Shown here piece by piece: positions 301 through 29,492 of a stretch of 33,704 nucleotides of DNA. Every line of letters begins with the position of its first letter. Position 1 is the first letter of the stretch. The notes beneath the pieces are model-generated. The model worked only from the letters and a program-made list of their open reading frames with translations. It was not told where the DNA came from and did no database searches. This stretch comes from a virus, in the UHGV virus genome UHGV-0014912; one strand, written 5' to 3'. Both the position numbers and the translations under genes were made by a program.

Positions 301-2700
301 TTACATCTTGCGTCTGTTGCTGTCTTGAACAATAGCCGCGATGTTCTGTTGCTGACGTTTTAATTGTTCAGCAAACCAACGCTGATCAGTAACATTTCCA
401 TTTACGTGAATACTCGCGTCGATTTTTGTTGCTTCTCCTGTTTTGTTATTATCCAAGAATTCTTTTAAGTCGCCGTTTGTGCGTTCATCAACAACACGTT
501 CGCCACCATCAAGCAACCATGTCCCTTCTCTTGGCACTTCTGAAATACCATCGTGAGCCATACCAGTAATATTCACTGATTTCATCTGCAAGACTTGTCC
601 GATAACTCGCGCATAGCTTGAAGCAGCCATAGCGTAACCCATTGGACCAGGATATTTAGCCATTGCAGCAGTTGCGGATTCATAAGCGTTTAACATACCG
701 CTTGCGATTGCTGTACCCTTTTGAATAGCAAATACAGCTTGAGCAGCGTCTGAACTTTCACCTGCGATGCCAGCTATTATTGAACCCATACCAGAAGCAA
801 ACCCGTTATACATTTGGAGTTTCGTCTGAGTTTCCAAGAAAGTAATTTGTTTCGACTTCGCGGCATACGCTTGGTCAAGACGTGCTTTCTGTTGCAGGAA
901 CTGCTCGTGACTGATTAACTGACCATCATATAATTTCTGGTTCTGTTCGCGCATTTTCTGAAATTGTTCATCTAATGCGGCTTGTTGAATAGCCATTTGT
1001 TCTTCGTCAGTTGCAAAACCCAACGCACTAAGATTTTTGATATTAGCCATATTACCATTGCCGCTCGTTGCTTTAATAGCTTCAAGACGTGCCTGATGGT
1101 CTTGCTGTAATGCTTCAATCTGTGTGTTGTATTCTTGCTGACTGATTAACGACTGTGCTTTCTTCGCTTCAAGTTGTTCAAGCTGTTGCTGATATACAAC
1201 TTCAAGACTTGTCGTGATTGCTCCAATTTCTTCAGGACTCGTCATAAGAGTCTGTTTAAATTCTTCGTTAGATGTTTTAAACAGCATGTTTCGGCGTTTC
1301 TTAGCCTGTTCAGCGGAGATAATTCCTTTTTTCTCAAGTTCTGAGATGGTTTTAATAGCCTGATGAACTTGACTAACCTGATTTGAAATCGTTCGACCTT
1401 CTTGACTCAGAATTGCAGCATCAAGACTGGAAAGATTCTGTAACGCAGCCTCCCTGTCTTGCATCATCTTATCGTAGGCAGCTTTAGATTCTCTTGCGGC
1501 TTGCTCCTGTAAGCGTTGCTTTTCTTTAGCAGCGCGTTCTTGTTCTCTTGCTACTCTATCAGCTTCGCGTTTAGCGTTATCAGCTTCTTTTTTCGCTTCC
1601 TCAGCGGCTTTCTCATTACGCTGTTTCTGCAACTTCGCTCGTGTTATTTCGTCTTGCTTACGTTTTTCATAAGCTTTATCACCTTGAGCTTTGGTCTTTT
1701 TCAGAAAACGTTCTGTCGTATCAAGATAATCTTTTTGCAGTTTACGTTGACCTGCGCCAGAAGTCGGGTTAGCGTCTGCATAAGCATCAACAACTGAATC
1801 CGCCATCCAATTAGCTAACATCTTATCAGGACGTAAGCTGTCGATTTCAGTAAAGAAGTCGAGAATACTAGTAGCTGTCCATTCTTTATTCGCGATGTCA
1901 TAAAGATTATTCATCTTAGTGACTAACGGGTCCATAACGTTAACAGCTAAATTATCCAAGTTCACAGAAAGAGTTTTCATCTTTTCATCGAATTCTTGGT
2001 ATTCCCTTGCTGTTTCGTTTGTAATACTAGCTGATTGGTTATTGATAGCGTTTAATGCTTCTTGAGTTGAGCCGTATTTTTCAAGAACAGTAATCAAGTG
2101 AGAACCGTCAGACGCCATAGACTCCATTCCGTTAACGATTTCGGCTTGACTTGCACCAGCTTTTTTCAAGTCATAATAAGTCTGAACAAGTGCTTTAATA
2201 CCGCCTTCGGCGTCGTTAATATATTGAGTGTATCGCTCAAGACCAATACCCCATTTATCAAGGTCATCACTAATACCGCCTGCACCTTCTCTGAATGAAT
2301 CACCGAGATGGTCGAGAGTATCTTTGTTAAGATCTCCGAAACGGTCAATTTCAATTCCTGTAGCGCGAAATTCTTTTTGAAGCTGTTGCAGATATTCAAC
2401 TGAAAGTCCAGTTGACGTAGAGATCTGATTAAGTTCTCTTGTTTTTTCTAAAGCGGTATTAAGAACAGCTACACCTGCGCCTGCTGCCATTCCTGCGATC
2501 CCCAGAGCTTGCATACCTGAGGACATTCCTGCAATAGTTGATATTCCACTGTTGAGATTATTCAACGGTCCTGTCATATTACTAAAAAGCCCATTAGCAA
2601 TCGAATCGAGTTCGTTCAGTTTCTCCATAGACTTATCAATAGATTTTGAAAGGCCTTTGTTATCTCCGTTAATCTCAACGTCATAACGTGATTTAGCCAT
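301..2700 (-). CDS. Tail tape measure protein
   Basis: 799 aa; long K/E/A/Q-rich coiled-coil centre, Gly/Ala-rich hydrophobic C-terminal segments (GFASGMGSIIAGIAG...), directly downstream of a G/T-like chaperone pair. Confidence 0.6.
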   Translation of the reverse strand: MAKSRYDVEINGDNKGLSKSIDKSMEKLNELDSIANGLFSNMTGPLNNLNSGISTIAGMSSGMQALGIAGMAAGAGVAVLNTALEKTRELNQISTSTGLSVEYLQQLQKEFRATGIEIDRFGDLNKDTLDHLGDSFREGAGGISDDLDKWGIGLERYTQYINDAEGGIKALVQTYYDLKKAGASQAEIVNGMESMASDGSHLITVLEKYGSTQEALNAINNQSASITNETAREYQEFDEKMKTLSVNLDNLAVNVMDPLVTKMNNLYDIANKEWTATSILDFFTEIDSLRPDKMLANWMADSVVDAYADANPTSGAGQRKLQKDYLDTTERFLKKTKAQGDKAYEKRKQDEITRAKLQKQRNEKAAEEAKKEADNAKREADRVAREQERAAKEKQRLQEQAARESKAAYDKMMQDREAALQNLSSLDAAILSQEGRTISNQVSQVHQAIKTISELEKKGIISAEQAKKRRNMLFKTSNEEFKQTLMTSPEEIGAITTSLEVVYQQQLEQLEAKKAQSLISQQEYNTQIEALQQDHQARLEAIKATSGNGNMANIKNLSALGFATDEEQMAIQQAALDEQFQKMREQNQKLYDGQLISHEQFLQQKARLDQAYAAKSKQITFLETQTKLQMYNGFASGMGSIIAGIAGESSDAAQAVFAIQKGTAIASGMLNAYESATAAMAKYPGPMGYAMAASSYARVIGQVLQMKSVNITGMAHDGISEVPREGTWLLDGGERVVDERTNGDLKEFLDNNKTGEATKIDASIHVNGNVTDQRWFAEQLKRQQQNIAAIVQDSNRRKM

Positions 2701-3055
2701 TATTCACCTTTTTTGTTTTTCTCAGTTTAACTTTATCCAACAGAGCTGGGTCGAACATCGATTCAATAGCTTTCTTACGTTTAAGCTCCTGTTGTTCTTT
2801 CTCTTTTTCGATTTCTTCTTGAGACTTAAACACAGAATCTTTAATAAGCTGATGGTCTTTCATGTTCAACTTTTTTCTGTACTCTTTGGTCAGATTCGGG
2901 TTATTTGCTTCGATAGTGTGAATCAATCGAGCTTGATAGAAATCGTTATAGACAGGACTTTGTGGTTCAATAAACGAGTCGAAAAACCATAATTCGTAAT
3001 ACATCATTACGGACATCTGTTGAATTTCTTCGTTTGATAATCCGCGACGTAACAT
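2693..3055 (-). CDS. Tail assembly chaperone, T-like frameshift extension (probably expressed as a G-T fusion)
   Basis: Reading frame stays open upstream of its first ATG and overlaps the 3' end of the 3091..3399 ORF in the -1 frame; sits immediately upstream of the tape measure gene. Confidence 0.4.
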   Translation of the reverse strand: MLRRGLSNEEIQQMSVMMYYELWFFDSFIEPQSPVYNDFYQARLIHTIEANNPNLTKEYRKKLNMKDHQLIKDSVFKSQEEIEKEKEQQELKRKKAIESMFDPALLDKVKLRKTKKVNNG

Positions 3056-3090
3056 TGTTCGATACTGAAATGATTTTGCCCAGTTCTGCC

Positions 3091-28275: not shown

Positions 28276-28281
28276 GGACAT

Positions 28282-28845
28282 ATGAATCTATTAGACACCG
28301 ACGTTAGGCTGACCGATGTTCAGCTTAAATCAAATGCTCCGTTTTTCTCTAACAGAGCAGTATCAGGCAAATTCCAGAAACGTTATACAGGCGTTCAATA
28401 CTTTGAATTGAATTTCACTGTGAATTATATGTCGCAAGACACAAGACACGTTCAACGCTTTATCGCGATGCATCAACAAGGTCAGCCGTTTGACTTTCCG
28501 TTAAGCTACTTGACTGACTATAAAGGCTCGGCAGAAGGACTTATTCAAGCATCTGTTACAGCTAACAAAGGAGCGCGTAAGGTCACTCTGAACAGCTTCA
28601 AAGACGTTTTAGAAGCGGGAACATTAGTTCAGTTTCAGAATCACTCCAAGCTGTATACCGTCACGGAGGATGTGAAAGCAGATGGAGAGATGAAACTATT
28701 TCCGAATCTGTTGCAGAACGTTCAAGCTGGCGAAACTGTCAATTACAGAGGAACGAAAGGACGATTCATCCTAACGAACGATACTATTCCTTTAGATCTT
28801 CAATCGATTTCAAATATTAAACTCACTGCAACAGAGGTGGTGTAA
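28282..28845 (+). CDS. Putative minor tail protein (lambda M-like N-terminal domain)
   Basis: ORF track start at 28270, but GAGAGGA RBS favours ATG at 28282; FQKRYTGVQYFELNFTVNY...QRFIAMHQQGQPFDFPL loosely parallels lambda M; low-confidence pattern match. Confidence 0.3.
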   Translation: MNLLDTDVRLTDVQLKSNAPFFSNRAVSGKFQKRYTGVQYFELNFTVNYMSQDTRHVQRFIAMHQQGQPFDFPLSYLTDYKGSAEGLIQASVTANKGARKVTLNSFKDVLEAGTLVQFQNHSKLYTVTEDVKADGEMKLFPNLLQNVQAGETVNYRGTKGRFILTNDTIPLDLQSISNIKLTATEVV

Positions 28846-29492
28846 TGTCAGTAAAAGACCAATTTAACAGACTGAGAAAAGATCCCGACTTCATCGAGGC
28901 TTACAACGATTTTAACGGCACTAATTATACTGAACTTACTACTGGTCAGTTGTTCAGTGTCGGCACGTTGTTTCATCTTGTTCAGATTAAGATGCATAAC
29001 GGCACAGAACTGTTGTTAACTGATGCTTATTACGACTTGCAATATCAAGGTAAGAATTATATCGCCGCTGGTGACTTTACTGATATCAGTTCAATCAGTG
29101 AAGAAAAAGAAATTAACAACATCGGTATGACCGTTAAGCTGGCTAATATCCGAAAAGAATATATCAACCTGATCAGAACAAAAGCTTTAAACCGAGCAGA
29201 CGTTAAGATTGATATTTGTTTTCTGAATCCTAATACTGGCAGTCCAACAGAGAGTTTTAATCTGTTCACTGGCTCTATGGATAAATTAACAGTTAACATC
29301 GAATACGATGATAATGAAGCGAAAAACGAAACCGAAGCTGTTATGAACTCAATCTGGGAAGTTCTTGAGAAATCTGCAAGAAATCACGCTTCCGATGGTG
29401 TTCATCGTAGTTATCCGGGTAATGAACAAGACACGTTCTTTTCTCGAATCGGAAAATGGAACTCAGAATCGAAATGGACGAGCGTAAAATAA
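28845..29492 (+). CDS. Putative minor tail protein (lambda L-like)
   Basis: 215 aa; TAATG-coupled to the upstream gene; QYQGKNYIAAGDF...MTVKLAN pattern loosely resembles lambda L; low-confidence. Confidence 0.3.
   Translation: MSVKDQFNRLRKDPDFIEAYNDFNGTNYTELTTGQLFSVGTLFHLVQIKMHNGTELLLTDAYYDLQYQGKNYIAAGDFTDISSISEEKEINNIGMTVKLANIRKEYINLIRTKALNRADVKIDICFLNPNTGSPTESFNLFTGSMDKLTVNIEYDDNEAKNETEAVMNSIWEVLEKSARNHASDGVHRSYPGNEQDTFFSRIGKWNSESKWTSVK

Follow-up and report, generated by a model that had tools for sequence, protein, structure and literature searches.

The window, which is the whole stretch of 33,704 nucleotides analyzed here (UHGV virus genome UHGV-0014912), contains a complete prophage of 31.7 kb (positions 242–31984) hosted by E. 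coli and inserted at the 5' end of ybiT. Joining of the two flanks of the window restores the 5' end of ybiT from strain K-12 (attB); the shared core consists of 4 nt, TCAC, and the crossover is located within this sequence (238–241). A distance of 40 nt separates the phage-side arm of attR from the start of the integrase gene, whose product was matched by the Pfam families Resolvase (73.6 bits) and Recombinase (52.1 bits). The junction generated by excision of prophages with the gene order of the window (type W, see below) was searched in IMG/VR and was not found there. The prophage of the window is that of an intact temperate siphophage; its tail tip is of the lambda/T5 type, its integrase is a large serine recombinase, and its attB site lies in the 5' end of ybiT. 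The integration functions are as follows.

219–241, plus strand: attL, host side, with the original start and first 8 codons of ybiT, aligned with the empty K-12 site
30417–31922, minus strand: large serine recombinase (integrase) of 501 residues, Pfam Resolvase and Recombinase
31962–31984, plus strand: attR, phage side, which gives ybiT a new TTG start and 8 codons

The tail genes of the minus strand are transcribed in the order 342-residue protein, fibre, V, K, J, five small genes, G, T, and tape measure, the latter being the final gene before attL. The genes for the distal tail protein (Dit) and the hub are carried by the plus strand, divergent from the lysozyme gene (lys). The preliminary description had reported, on tentative assignments, that the canonical lambda order, V-G-T-H-M-L-K-I-J, is broken, with V followed by a K-like gene and J, with G/T/H downstream, and with the M and L positions about 19 kb from the other tail genes, on the opposite strand beside the lysozyme gene. 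All of these positions were verified in the sequence, at the following coordinates.

12842–13870, minus strand: 342-residue protein, the N-terminal 160 residues being a paralogue of V (tube fold) and the C-terminal part fibre-like
10007–12829, minus strand: side tail fibre of 940 residues, PHROG fibre families (E down to 9e-107), C-terminal S74-type chaperone region
9468–9947, minus strand: V-like tail tube protein, PHROG major tail protein (E 4.6e-15)
8985–9401, minus strand: K-position protein, DUF6950, NlpC/P60 fold
5296–8985, minus strand: J-like central tail fibre or tip protein, PHROG central tail fiber J (5.6e-60), Pfam Phage_Tail_Tip
3462–5253, minus strand: end of block D, with p105, p180 (minor tail protein), p65, endonuclease VII, and p94
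3091–3399, minus strand: G-like tail assembly chaperone, PHROG tail assembly chaperone (5.6e-7), weak Pfam match to Phage_TAC_13
2693–3118, minus strand: T-like frame, open from 3118 and with its own ATG at 3055 (2693–3055), assigned from position and reading frame
301–2700, minus strand: tape measure (H position), PHROG tape measure (E 1.1e-72), syntenic with the tape measure gene of canonical relatives
27751–28236, minus strand: T4-type lysozyme, half of the divergent lys/Dit-hub cassette
28270–28845, plus strand: Dit (M position), PHROG distal tail protein (2e-23), profile matches to T5 pb9, likely start at ATG 28282
28845–29492, plus strand: hub N-terminal protein (L position) of the gp84_N/DUF2163 type, Pfam PF09931 Phage_phiJL001_Gp84_N

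The J-like protein was matched by Phage_Tail_Tip with 80 bits and by PDB profiles of lambda J, J-like proteins, T5 pb3, and lambda I, its N-terminal 100 residues or so resembling the C-terminus of lambda I. The T-like frame is in −1 relative to G; it shares 28 nt with the end of G and continues into the tape measure gene. For a −1 frameshift producing a G-T protein, the only candidate slippery site is GAAAAG, which is non-canonical, and an ATG is present in T itself. At the V, G, T, M, and L positions, lambda-specific Pfam matches were weak or absent: V gave a weak match with the lambda TTP family (E 0.093), no match with the lambda minor tail protein families was obtained for the M and L positions, and no family of the PHROG and Pfam profile searches matched the T-like protein. 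These observations could mean that the homology calls are wrong and that the order is not truly scrambled. Such an error, which the preliminary description had considered, is extremely improbable in view of the PHROG profiles, the PDB profile match to T5 pb9, the above-threshold match of the hub to gp84_N (30.1 bits for a cut-off of 26; PHROG tail protein, 9.5e-20), the NlpC/P60 fold, and, chiefly, the canonical positions held by orthologues of the same proteins in about 66 relatives. Profile, structure, and synteny evidence uphold the assignments. As judged from these matches, the labels 'M-like' and 'L-like' are correct by position; by sequence, one protein is of the T5 pb9 type and the other of the gp84_N/DUF2163 type, neither being homologous to lambda M or L.

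The fibre gene had also been regarded as part of the scrambling. Since it lies between the genes for the 342-residue protein and the tube protein in canonical relatives too, its position is, on comparison of gene orders, ancestral and outside the scrambling. Peptidase_S74 is carried by a relative from Salmonella (L009).

Collinearity with the window was observed for all seven complete E. coli genomes harboring the prophage (7/7) and for contigs from IMG/VR and metagenomes. Among W-type relatives, the displaced tail genes displayed dN/dS ratios of 0.04 to 0.21 at dS values of 0.05 to 0.5. Because seven closed genomes share the order and the displaced genes are under purifying selection, the gene order is, as far as sequences can tell, real, old, and functional, and is inherited in a small phage lineage rather than being an artefact. 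An assembly artefact or a chimera of two phages, corresponding to the mosaic assembly proposed in the preliminary description, is practically untenable. Errors of this type do occur, as a related public record (phage DCP80) is chimeric, but nothing similar was found for the window, the same order is present in seven complete chromosomes and in independent contigs, and the host flanks at both ends rebuild a single attB. A private or recent event does not account for an order fixed in a lineage that has diverged to this extent under purifying selection. Close relatives share exactly the order of the window, an observation that had been put forward as an argument against rearrangement; it excludes an artefact but not an evolutionary rearrangement.

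The canonical order, V-G-T-TMP-Dit-hub-K-J (TMP, tape measure), was found in about 66 relatives, all with Dit after TMP, including a 30.6 kb genome within the GenBank record of phage DCP80. (This record is a concatenation.) Scrambled orders were confined to a single clade (200/200 bootstrap replicates) nested among canonical lineages. This clade comprises at least four permutations (P, W, S, and S2) that are one to three inversions apart, the order of the window being W. Types W, P, and S were mapped in full, and the same types and S2 were found in metagenome contigs. W was monophyletic in 186 of the 200 replicates and S in 153, whereas P was paraphyletic, with a Pantoea locus in basal position. 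Rearrangement distances were 1 for P–W, 2 for P–S, 3 for W–S, and 4 between the canonical order and P, in agreement with the tree. The route from the canonical order to P involves at least four steps, and no intermediate was found among the relatives and metagenome contigs. Certain associations were maintained throughout: p105, p180, p65, endonuclease VII, and p94 accompany K and J in all relatives, and lys is adjacent to Dit in W, P, S, and S2. Since relatives with the canonical order exist, the inversions or module shuffling invoked in the preliminary description did occur.

The lys/Dit-hub cassette has opposite orientations in W and P and includes a palindromic two-way control region, as might be expected for a programmed reversible switch of the Gin/Cin/Pin type flipping within the population. 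We consider this explanation very improbable. A single orientation was observed in all seven E. coli genomes and in all W-type contigs, and the cassette proteins of P and W genomes are only 62–74% identical, indicating old lineages rather than isomers. In addition, no small invertase was recognized among the scanned proteins, the sole recombinase being the 501-residue integrase, and the cassette is not flanked by long inverted repeats (best candidate of 21 nt with 81% complementarity).

The model developed below considers five blocks: A (from TerL to V), D (K and J with the small genes as far as p105), B (G, T, and tape measure), c (Dit and hub), and e (lysozyme). Conserved palindromic, terminator-like hairpins comprising an A-run, GGGAGC, a loop, GCTCCC, and a T-run are located at block ends in the window (positions 276, 3436, 9430, and 29489) and at the corresponding junctions of P and S genomes. 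The border features of the window are the following.

276–298, minus strand: hairpin after the tape measure gene, GGGAGC-loop-GCTCCC
3426–3462, minus strand: border of blocks D and B, with a hairpin (3436–3462) followed by a TAAATAAA box (3426–3433) ahead of G
9416–9456, minus strand: border of blocks A and D, with a hairpin after V (9430–9456) and a TAAATAAA box (9416–9423) ahead of K
28242–28276, no strand: palindromic divergent control region, CCTCATAAATA-N12-TATTTATGAGa
29489–29512, no strand: hairpin between the convergent hub and p245 genes

The seven copies of TAAATAAA are all located on the coding strand, 14 to 35 nt upstream of start codons, and variants precede lys, Dit, and TerL. 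The region at 28242–28276 provides both lys and Dit with an upstream TAAATA box, and its arms covary in relatives. Most of the moved blocks begin with a TAAATA(A) box. We infer from these locations that the boxes are putative promoters; the TAAATA motif is not over-represented genome-wide.

The hairpin at 276–298 and the copy at 3437–3460 form a direct repeat (23/24), by which block B is flanked in the window, asymmetric loop included. The stem sequence is uniform in each genome, and the differences observed between lineages are compensatory (GGGAGC/GCTCCC versus GGGACC/GGTCCC). The two canonical relatives nearest to the rearranged clade already harbor hairpins at the V/G, TMP/Dit, and hub/K borders. 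None was present at the Dit/hub border of 23 canonical relatives (0/23) or at G/T (0/4). The orientation of the loop of the hub hairpin is independent of the arrangement, since L016 and L146, both of type S2, have opposite loops.

One inversion was mapped between two close relatives, L017 and L146 (92–96% identity), in which a 2 kb attP-int segment has opposite orientations. On the left, the segment ends at the hub hairpin, collinearity stopping exactly at the 3' edge of the hairpin. Its right end is at most 94 nt from the p105 hairpin, in a region where 94–305 nt are not alignable. The attP site is internal to the inverted segment. This location bears on the proposal, made in the preliminary description, that the large serine recombinase generated the inversions, here by acting on attP and on pseudo-att sites at block borders. 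Serine recombinases are able to invert DNA lying between inversely oriented sites, int and attP are at or beside several rearranged junctions, and the orientation of int differs between arrangement types. However, attP is inside rather than at an end of the one inversion mapped between close relatives, it has kept its linkage with the 5' side of int in all four arrangements (W, P, S, and S2), and no attP-like site was detected above chance in the window (best non-att match of 27/50 for a shuffle mean of 27.5) or at any block border. A role of the recombinase is therefore very unlikely.

The explanation that we favor, and regard as probable, is that hairpin-bounded tail cassettes were shuffled by successive inversions. 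The tail module would be split into self-contained cassettes, corresponding to blocks A, D, B, c, and e, that were flipped and moved several times. Each cassette would end in a terminator hairpin and most would start with a promoter-like TAAATA(A) box. Because each cassette would thus bring its own signals, the genes would be expressed and the tail would assemble in any order. From an ancestor with the order V-G-T-TMP-Dit-hub-K-J, a single sub-lineage would have been rearranged by inversions ending at hairpins. The order P (int, lys', Dit-hub, ..., V, K-J, G-T-TMP) would have been reached first, and a flip of the lys/Dit-hub cassette would have converted P to W. S would have arisen by two other inversions, and S2 by an additional flip of the attP-int segment. 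The order of these events, and the participation of the hairpins as actual recombination substrates, are to be regarded as probable reconstructions. With respect to the hairpin mediation suggested in the preliminary description, hairpins do mark the block borders, and a recent inversion in close relatives terminates at such a hairpin. The association between hairpins and breakpoints is partly built in, because terminators end transcription units and only breaks between units are viable. The model also predicts a hairpin after lys; the window has none, and a TIR cargo insertion is present there instead.

A possible, although distinctly less probable, alternative is that the rearrangements are real but that the hairpins are ordinary terminators without any role, breaks having occurred at random by illegitimate recombination or by exchange with co-resident phages. 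Only breaks between transcription units, where terminators already sit, would have survived. Phages commonly have terminators after their major capsid and tube genes, and hairpins are also found here at borders that never moved, after the major capsid protein gene (MCP) and after the fibre gene. The lack of a hairpin after lys in the window fits this alternative, as does the limited homology between stems (8–11 bp, or 24 bp at most when flanks are counted), a short length for homologous recombination. Against it, the homogenized stems of each genome and the compensatory differences between lineages suggest that the copies exchange sequence, the direct repeat around block B extends to the asymmetric loop, and the collinearity of L017 and L146 is interrupted precisely at a hairpin edge.

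Shuffling of hairpin-bounded cassettes may be extended to a more speculative proposal, which we consider doubtful: the hairpins would be working parts of a natural cassette-shuffling system, beyond their role as terminators, and cassettes would invert or move at an appreciable rate. The palindromic stem-loops, homogenized in each genome and present at every cassette border, would extrude as cruciforms or pair with one another; cleavage or resolution would follow, the phage endonuclease VII being a possible agent. Tail, lysis, and integration cassettes would move, each keeping its own TAAATA-type promoter. Gene order itself would then be a fast-evolving character in this phage lineage.

In long-tailed phages, the order tube, chaperones, tape measure, Dit, and hub/tip is held to be near-invariant and is routinely used to annotate tail genes devoid of detectable homology. 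In this lineage, the tail order is split into at least five blocks and exists in at least four permutations with genes still under purifying selection, so annotation based on order and calls of prophage completeness can fail. In the window, for example, the tape measure gene is at one end of the prophage and the Dit and hub genes are near the other. The lineage provides a compact natural system, in which close genomes differ by single inversions, for testing terminator hairpins as recombination sites and the dependence of tail assembly on co-transcription.

The phage shares with lambda the same functional set, from the tube to the J-type fibre, and a G/T pair with an overlapping −1 frame, and the canonical relatives have exactly the lambda order. 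It differs from lambda by its T5 pb9-like Dit and gp84_N/DUF2163-like hub, by the K-position protein, which does not have the second (JAB/MPN) domain of lambda K, and by the order V / K-J... / G-T-H, in which Dit-hub is on the opposite strand at a distance of 19 kb. The pb9-type Dit, the gp84_N/DUF2163 hub N-terminus, the small NlpC/P60-fold protein, and the large J/pb3-like tip protein are reminiscent of the tail tip of T5 (pb6, pb2, pb9, pb3) and of the Rhodobacter gene transfer agent (g12–g15). The self-cleaving S74-type C-terminal region of the side fibre is likewise found in T5 pb1. To our knowledge, the tail genes of T5 and of the gene transfer agent are contiguous and in order, whereas they occupy three locations here.

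The invertible segments of Mu (G/Gin), P1 (C/Cin), and e14 (Pin) also involve inversion within a prophage tail region, close to a gene for a serine-family recombinase. These segments are reversible switches between two fibre variants and rely on a small invertase and defined crossover sites. In contrast, the inversions reported here are fixed differences between lineages, move whole structural cassettes, and end at terminator hairpins, and the sole recognized recombinase is a large serine integrase without matching sites at the borders. Exchange at module borders marked by short conserved sequences is a feature in common with Botstein's module theory and with the junction sequences of lambdoid phages. 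Classical modular cases swap alternative modules and keep the order, whereas here a single genome type shows permutation and inversion of the same genes, even of the TMP-Dit-hub run, which is normally invariant.

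Profile searches support every homology call needed for the claim, made in the preliminary description, that the tail genes are scrambled; the possibility raised there that some calls were wrong was not borne out. The genes are named here by position, with TMP (tape measure), Dit and hub at the H, M and L positions, respectively.

Tail genes of the window
301-2700: tape measure protein (PHROG, E 1.1e-72)
2693-3055: T, no family match; in frame -1 relative to G, open from 3118 and entering the tape measure gene
3091-3399: G, tail assembly chaperone (5.6e-7)
5296-8985: J, central tail fiber J (5.6e-60; Pfam Phage_Tail_Tip)
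9468-9947: V, major tail protein (4.6e-15)
28270-28845: Dit, distal tail protein (2e-23)
28845-29492: hub, tail protein (9.5e-20; Pfam Phage_phiJL001_Gp84_N exceeding its cut-off)

Because these calls are backed by profiles, the order in the window can be read as V, then K and J, five small genes and G-T-TMP, with Dit and hub 19 kb off on the opposite strand and divergent from the lysozyme gene. A profile built from Dit relatives matched T5 pb9 (PDB), and a profile of J relatives matched lambda J and the C-terminal part of T5 pb3 (PDB), its N-terminal ~100 residues matching the C-terminus of lambda I. The terms 'M-like' and 'L-like' are thus positional labels for proteins that are, by sequence, of the T5/gp84_N type. 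V has a paralogue in the N-terminal 160 residues of a 342-aa protein (12842-13870 versus 9468-9947; 25% identity, E 6e-11). The side-fibre gene sits between these two tube-fold paralogues, and the 342-aa protein, whose C-terminal part is fibre-like, may act as fibre anchor.

The E. coli chromosome accounts for bases 1-241 and 31985-33704 of the window, bases 1-265 being matched in 5423 of 5426 complete E. coli genomes and ybiT forming the right flank. Alignment of both ends to the empty site of K-12 mapped the crossover to a 4-nt core, TCAC, within the first 8 codons of ybiT, and the prophage therefore spans 242-31984 (~31.7 kb). Its left end lies 60 nt from the end of the tape measure gene, and its right end carries a large serine recombinase gene, int (30417-31922; Resolvase and Recombinase domains). 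Following integration, the first 8 codons of ybiT are swapped for a phage TTG start and a similar N-terminus (MLLSNNIT versus MLVSSNVT; 219-241 and 31962-31990), and the old start at attL now runs to a stop after 9 codons. In E. coli O111:H- 11128 (L007, NC_013364.1, ~936080), the same ybiT site is occupied by a different insertion, which has in common with the window prophage the first ~15 nt inside attL, AATATAGTTTCAAAG; this suggests another element with a related integrase and att site.

Comparison with relatives yielded both the canonical tail order, V-G-T-TMP-Dit-hub-K-J, and the order of the window itself. IMG/VR was searched with a Dit alignment, and the window proteins were mapped to each locus by tblastn. 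The canonical order was found in about 66 IMG/VR loci, in a separately found Salmonella prophage and in the GenBank record of Escherichia phage DCP80, whose first 30.6 kb hold a syntenic structural module (TerL ... V, G, T, TMP, Dit, hub, DUF6950, J, endonuclease VII, p180, p105, lysozyme; p numbers denote small window proteins by length). The existence of these relatives bears out the scrambled order. The fibre gene occupies the interval between the 342-aa gene and V in each of these relatives, and its position is therefore ancestral; the preliminary description had counted it as part of the scrambling. One canonical contig near the rearranged clade (L020) has its own local inversion of lysozyme-p105-p180. 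The DCP80 record (L003, PQ671644.1) is listed under Straboviridae as a T4-like phage of 141 kb. Its bases 1-111 are repeated exactly at 30600-30710; between the repeats lies a complete-looking 30.6 kb siphophage genome akin to the window prophage, followed by T4-like genes (motA, ndd). A circular contig of 30.6 kb appears to have been joined to a T4-like one, which would make the record a probable chimera.

Mosaic assembly, proposed as a source of the scrambling, is contradicted by seven complete E. coli genomes carrying the prophage, all of them collinear with the window. The right-hand 4.5 kb is ~96-97% identical to the window in six and ~80% in one, and the remainder is 79-89% identical. 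In E. coli 2021CK-01361 and MS 115-1, further lysogens of the window type, the structural region aligns with that of the window only in part (63% at 87%). Reading frames are full-length in the window copy. Purifying selection has acted since the order arose on the genes that were displaced (G, T, TMP, Dit, hub, K, J, V and lysozyme): dN/dS between relatives with the window order is 0.04-0.21 at dS 0.05-0.5. A further permuted order, S, is carried by metagenome contig L017, which we take as excised phage DNA because hub-attP-int is unbroken in it and host DNA starts exactly at attP in L146, which is 92-96% identical. An exact search of IMG/VR for an excised attP junction of the window type found none. 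Altogether, we are highly confident that the rearrangement is at once real, old and functional. The copy in E. coli E-93 (L001, NZ_CP112988.1) has the window order and shows decay, with IS3 interrupting the protease-capsid gene, IS50R adjoining hub and the fibre gene annotated as a fragment only. The protease-capsid gene, hub region and fibre gene are intact in the window.

Gene orders were compared as circular maps of blocks: A runs from TerL to V; B is G-T-TMP; c is Dit-hub; D runs from K-J to p105; e is lysozyme; X is attP-int; F comprises TerS together with the small genes before TerL; a prime denotes inversion.

Block orders
Canonical, A B c D e X' F: DCP80, Salmonella prophage, about 66 IMG/VR loci
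P, A D B X e' c F: three IMG/VR contigs (two full-length, one partial), Pantoea stewartii, two metagenome contigs
W, A D B X c' e F: the window, the seven complete genomes of E. coli, contigs from IMG/VR and from metagenomes
S, A D X' c' e B F: one IMG/VR contig across the junction; partial contigs consistent
S2, S order with X re-inverted: two contigs

The proposed module shuffling is thus supported, with at least four permuted orders in one clade. These orders are confined to the closest relatives, whose Dit is at least 54% identical to that of the window. In a neighbour-joining tree of Dit and hub, all non-canonical genomes form a single clade (200/200 bootstrap replicates) that is embedded among the canonical lineages. 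Monophyly was recovered for W in 186/200 replicates and for S in 153/200; the P genomes are paraphyletic, and the Pantoea locus is basal. One inversion, of the lysozyme/Dit-hub cassette, leads from P to W, two overlapping inversions lead from P to S, W to S takes three steps and canonical to P four, distances that are consistent with the tree. In the simplest history, a P-like order would have arisen once and W, S and S2 would descend from it. The metagenome scan gave the known types and S2, and no intermediates between canonical and P, one of which is predicted to be A D B c' e X'. Metagenome contig L149 (OKPJ01000004.1, 3565-12836) has both att arms, with only TerS, TMP, T, G, lysozyme, Dit and hub recognisable between them; it appears to be a degraded S-type prophage of which 9 kb remain.

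Hairpins, which the preliminary description had suggested as mediators, are present at the ends of the moved blocks. Each consists of an A-run, a GC-rich stem and a T-run.

Hairpins at block borders in the window
276-298: after TMP
3436-3462: after p105
9430-9456: after V
29489-29512: after hub

P and S genomes have hairpins at matching junctions, and all four ends required for the three inversions from P to W and P to S are hairpin-marked (after p105, TMP and hub, and between lysozyme and int). Among 23 dereplicated canonical relatives, hairpins were found at the V-G junction in 3/3, at TMP-Dit in 9/19 and at hub-K in 3/23, versus 0/23 at Dit-hub and 0/4 at G-T; the first three junctions already bear hairpins in the two canonical relatives nearest the clade. 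Because of this distribution, the moved blocks correspond to units that hairpins already delimited. The coincidence of hairpins and breakpoints is partly built in, since the gaps between transcription units are where terminators as well as viable breakpoints should fall. The hairpin copies share only short homology, their loop orientation does not follow arrangement, and the window has no hairpin after lysozyme, where a TIR-domain cargo pair is inserted. Window hairpins also stand at unmoved borders (after the fibre gene, MCP and two other genes), and a search for inverted repeats around the lysozyme/Dit-hub cassette gave only a weak 21-nt pair. Support for hairpin involvement comes from L017 and L146, whose collinearity ends where the hub hairpin has its 3' edge. 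Beyond this point a 2 kb segment with attP and int is inverted; its far end is no more than 94 nt from the p105 hairpin, itself an inverted 20-nt copy of the one at hub. In addition, G-T-TMP is flanked by two hairpin copies forming a 23/24 direct repeat, asymmetric loop included. Stems are alike in any one genome, and compensatory changes set the lineages apart (GGGAGC/GCTCCC in W and P, GGGACC/GGTCCC in S and DCP80), a uniformity that fits exchange among copies or a common lineage-specific constraint. That the hairpins are the actual recombination sites is a tentative proposal, to which we give slightly less than an even chance. Rfam detected no known RNA family in the window.

No support was found for the serine integrase as agent of the rearrangement, a role also considered in the preliminary description. 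The best attP-like match within the window was at chance level (27/50 versus a shuffle mean of 27.5), attP lies inside the segment inverted between L017 and L146, and it remains 5' of int in all four types (W, P, S and S2).

The motif TAAATAAA occurs in seven exact copies in the window, all on the coding strand and 14-35 nt before the start codons of G, p105, p94, K, V, p98 and p160.

Copies of TAAATAAA
3426-3433, minus
3796-3803, minus
5285-5292, minus
9416-9423, minus
9975-9982, minus
14582-14589, minus
18730-18737, minus

At four borders the motif immediately follows the hairpin. Close variants (CATAAATA, TATAAATA) precede lysozyme, Dit, TerL, TerS and p148, and the motif is retained at orthologous sites in relatives. 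The lysozyme and Dit starts are 45 bp apart, and the gap holds a near-perfect palindrome (28242-28276; 11-nt arms, 12-nt spacer), CCTCATAAATA-N12-TATTTATGAGa, with a box for each gene. Its arms covary in relatives (GCCTCGCTAAATAAG / CTTATTTAGCGAGGC in one), and it may be a two-way promoter or operator. We infer that the boxes are putative promoters and that each cassette would be an independent transcription unit; genome-wide, the motif shows no over-representation. The motif is similar to TATAAATA, the T4 late promoter; no late sigma-like gene was recognised. Dependence on a T-even helper was considered on the basis of the TAAATA boxes, T4-type lysozyme, endonuclease VII, GIY-YIG/NUMOD3 nucleases and the co-assembly of DCP80 with a T4-like phage. 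It is improbable, since the motif is not over-represented genome-wide and the genes are common in other phages.

A near-identity DNA search of a phage collection gave no match to the window, and a scan of species-representative genomes found a single locus. Neither this prophage family nor DCP80 was found described in the literature searched, and the same holds for tail-gene permutation of this kind and for its link to hairpins. No replication or CI/Cro-type module was recognised across the 31.7 kb. A distance of 4.7 kb separates the gene for the small terminase (25329-25877, PHROG 1.2e-20) from that for the large one, the interval (20631-25328) encoding a GIY-YIG protein, a NUMOD3 homing-endonuclease-like protein, a weak GntR-like regulator and unknown genes. 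Cargo at 26214-27409 and 29521-30258 is found in W-type genomes only. That between hub and int encodes a 245-aa protein (phrog_30303), missing from one divergent W-type relative; that after the lysozyme gene encodes a CAP12/Pycsar-type TIR-domain protein (PADLOC candidate system PDC-S35, E 9e-71) and a 99-aa upstream partner.
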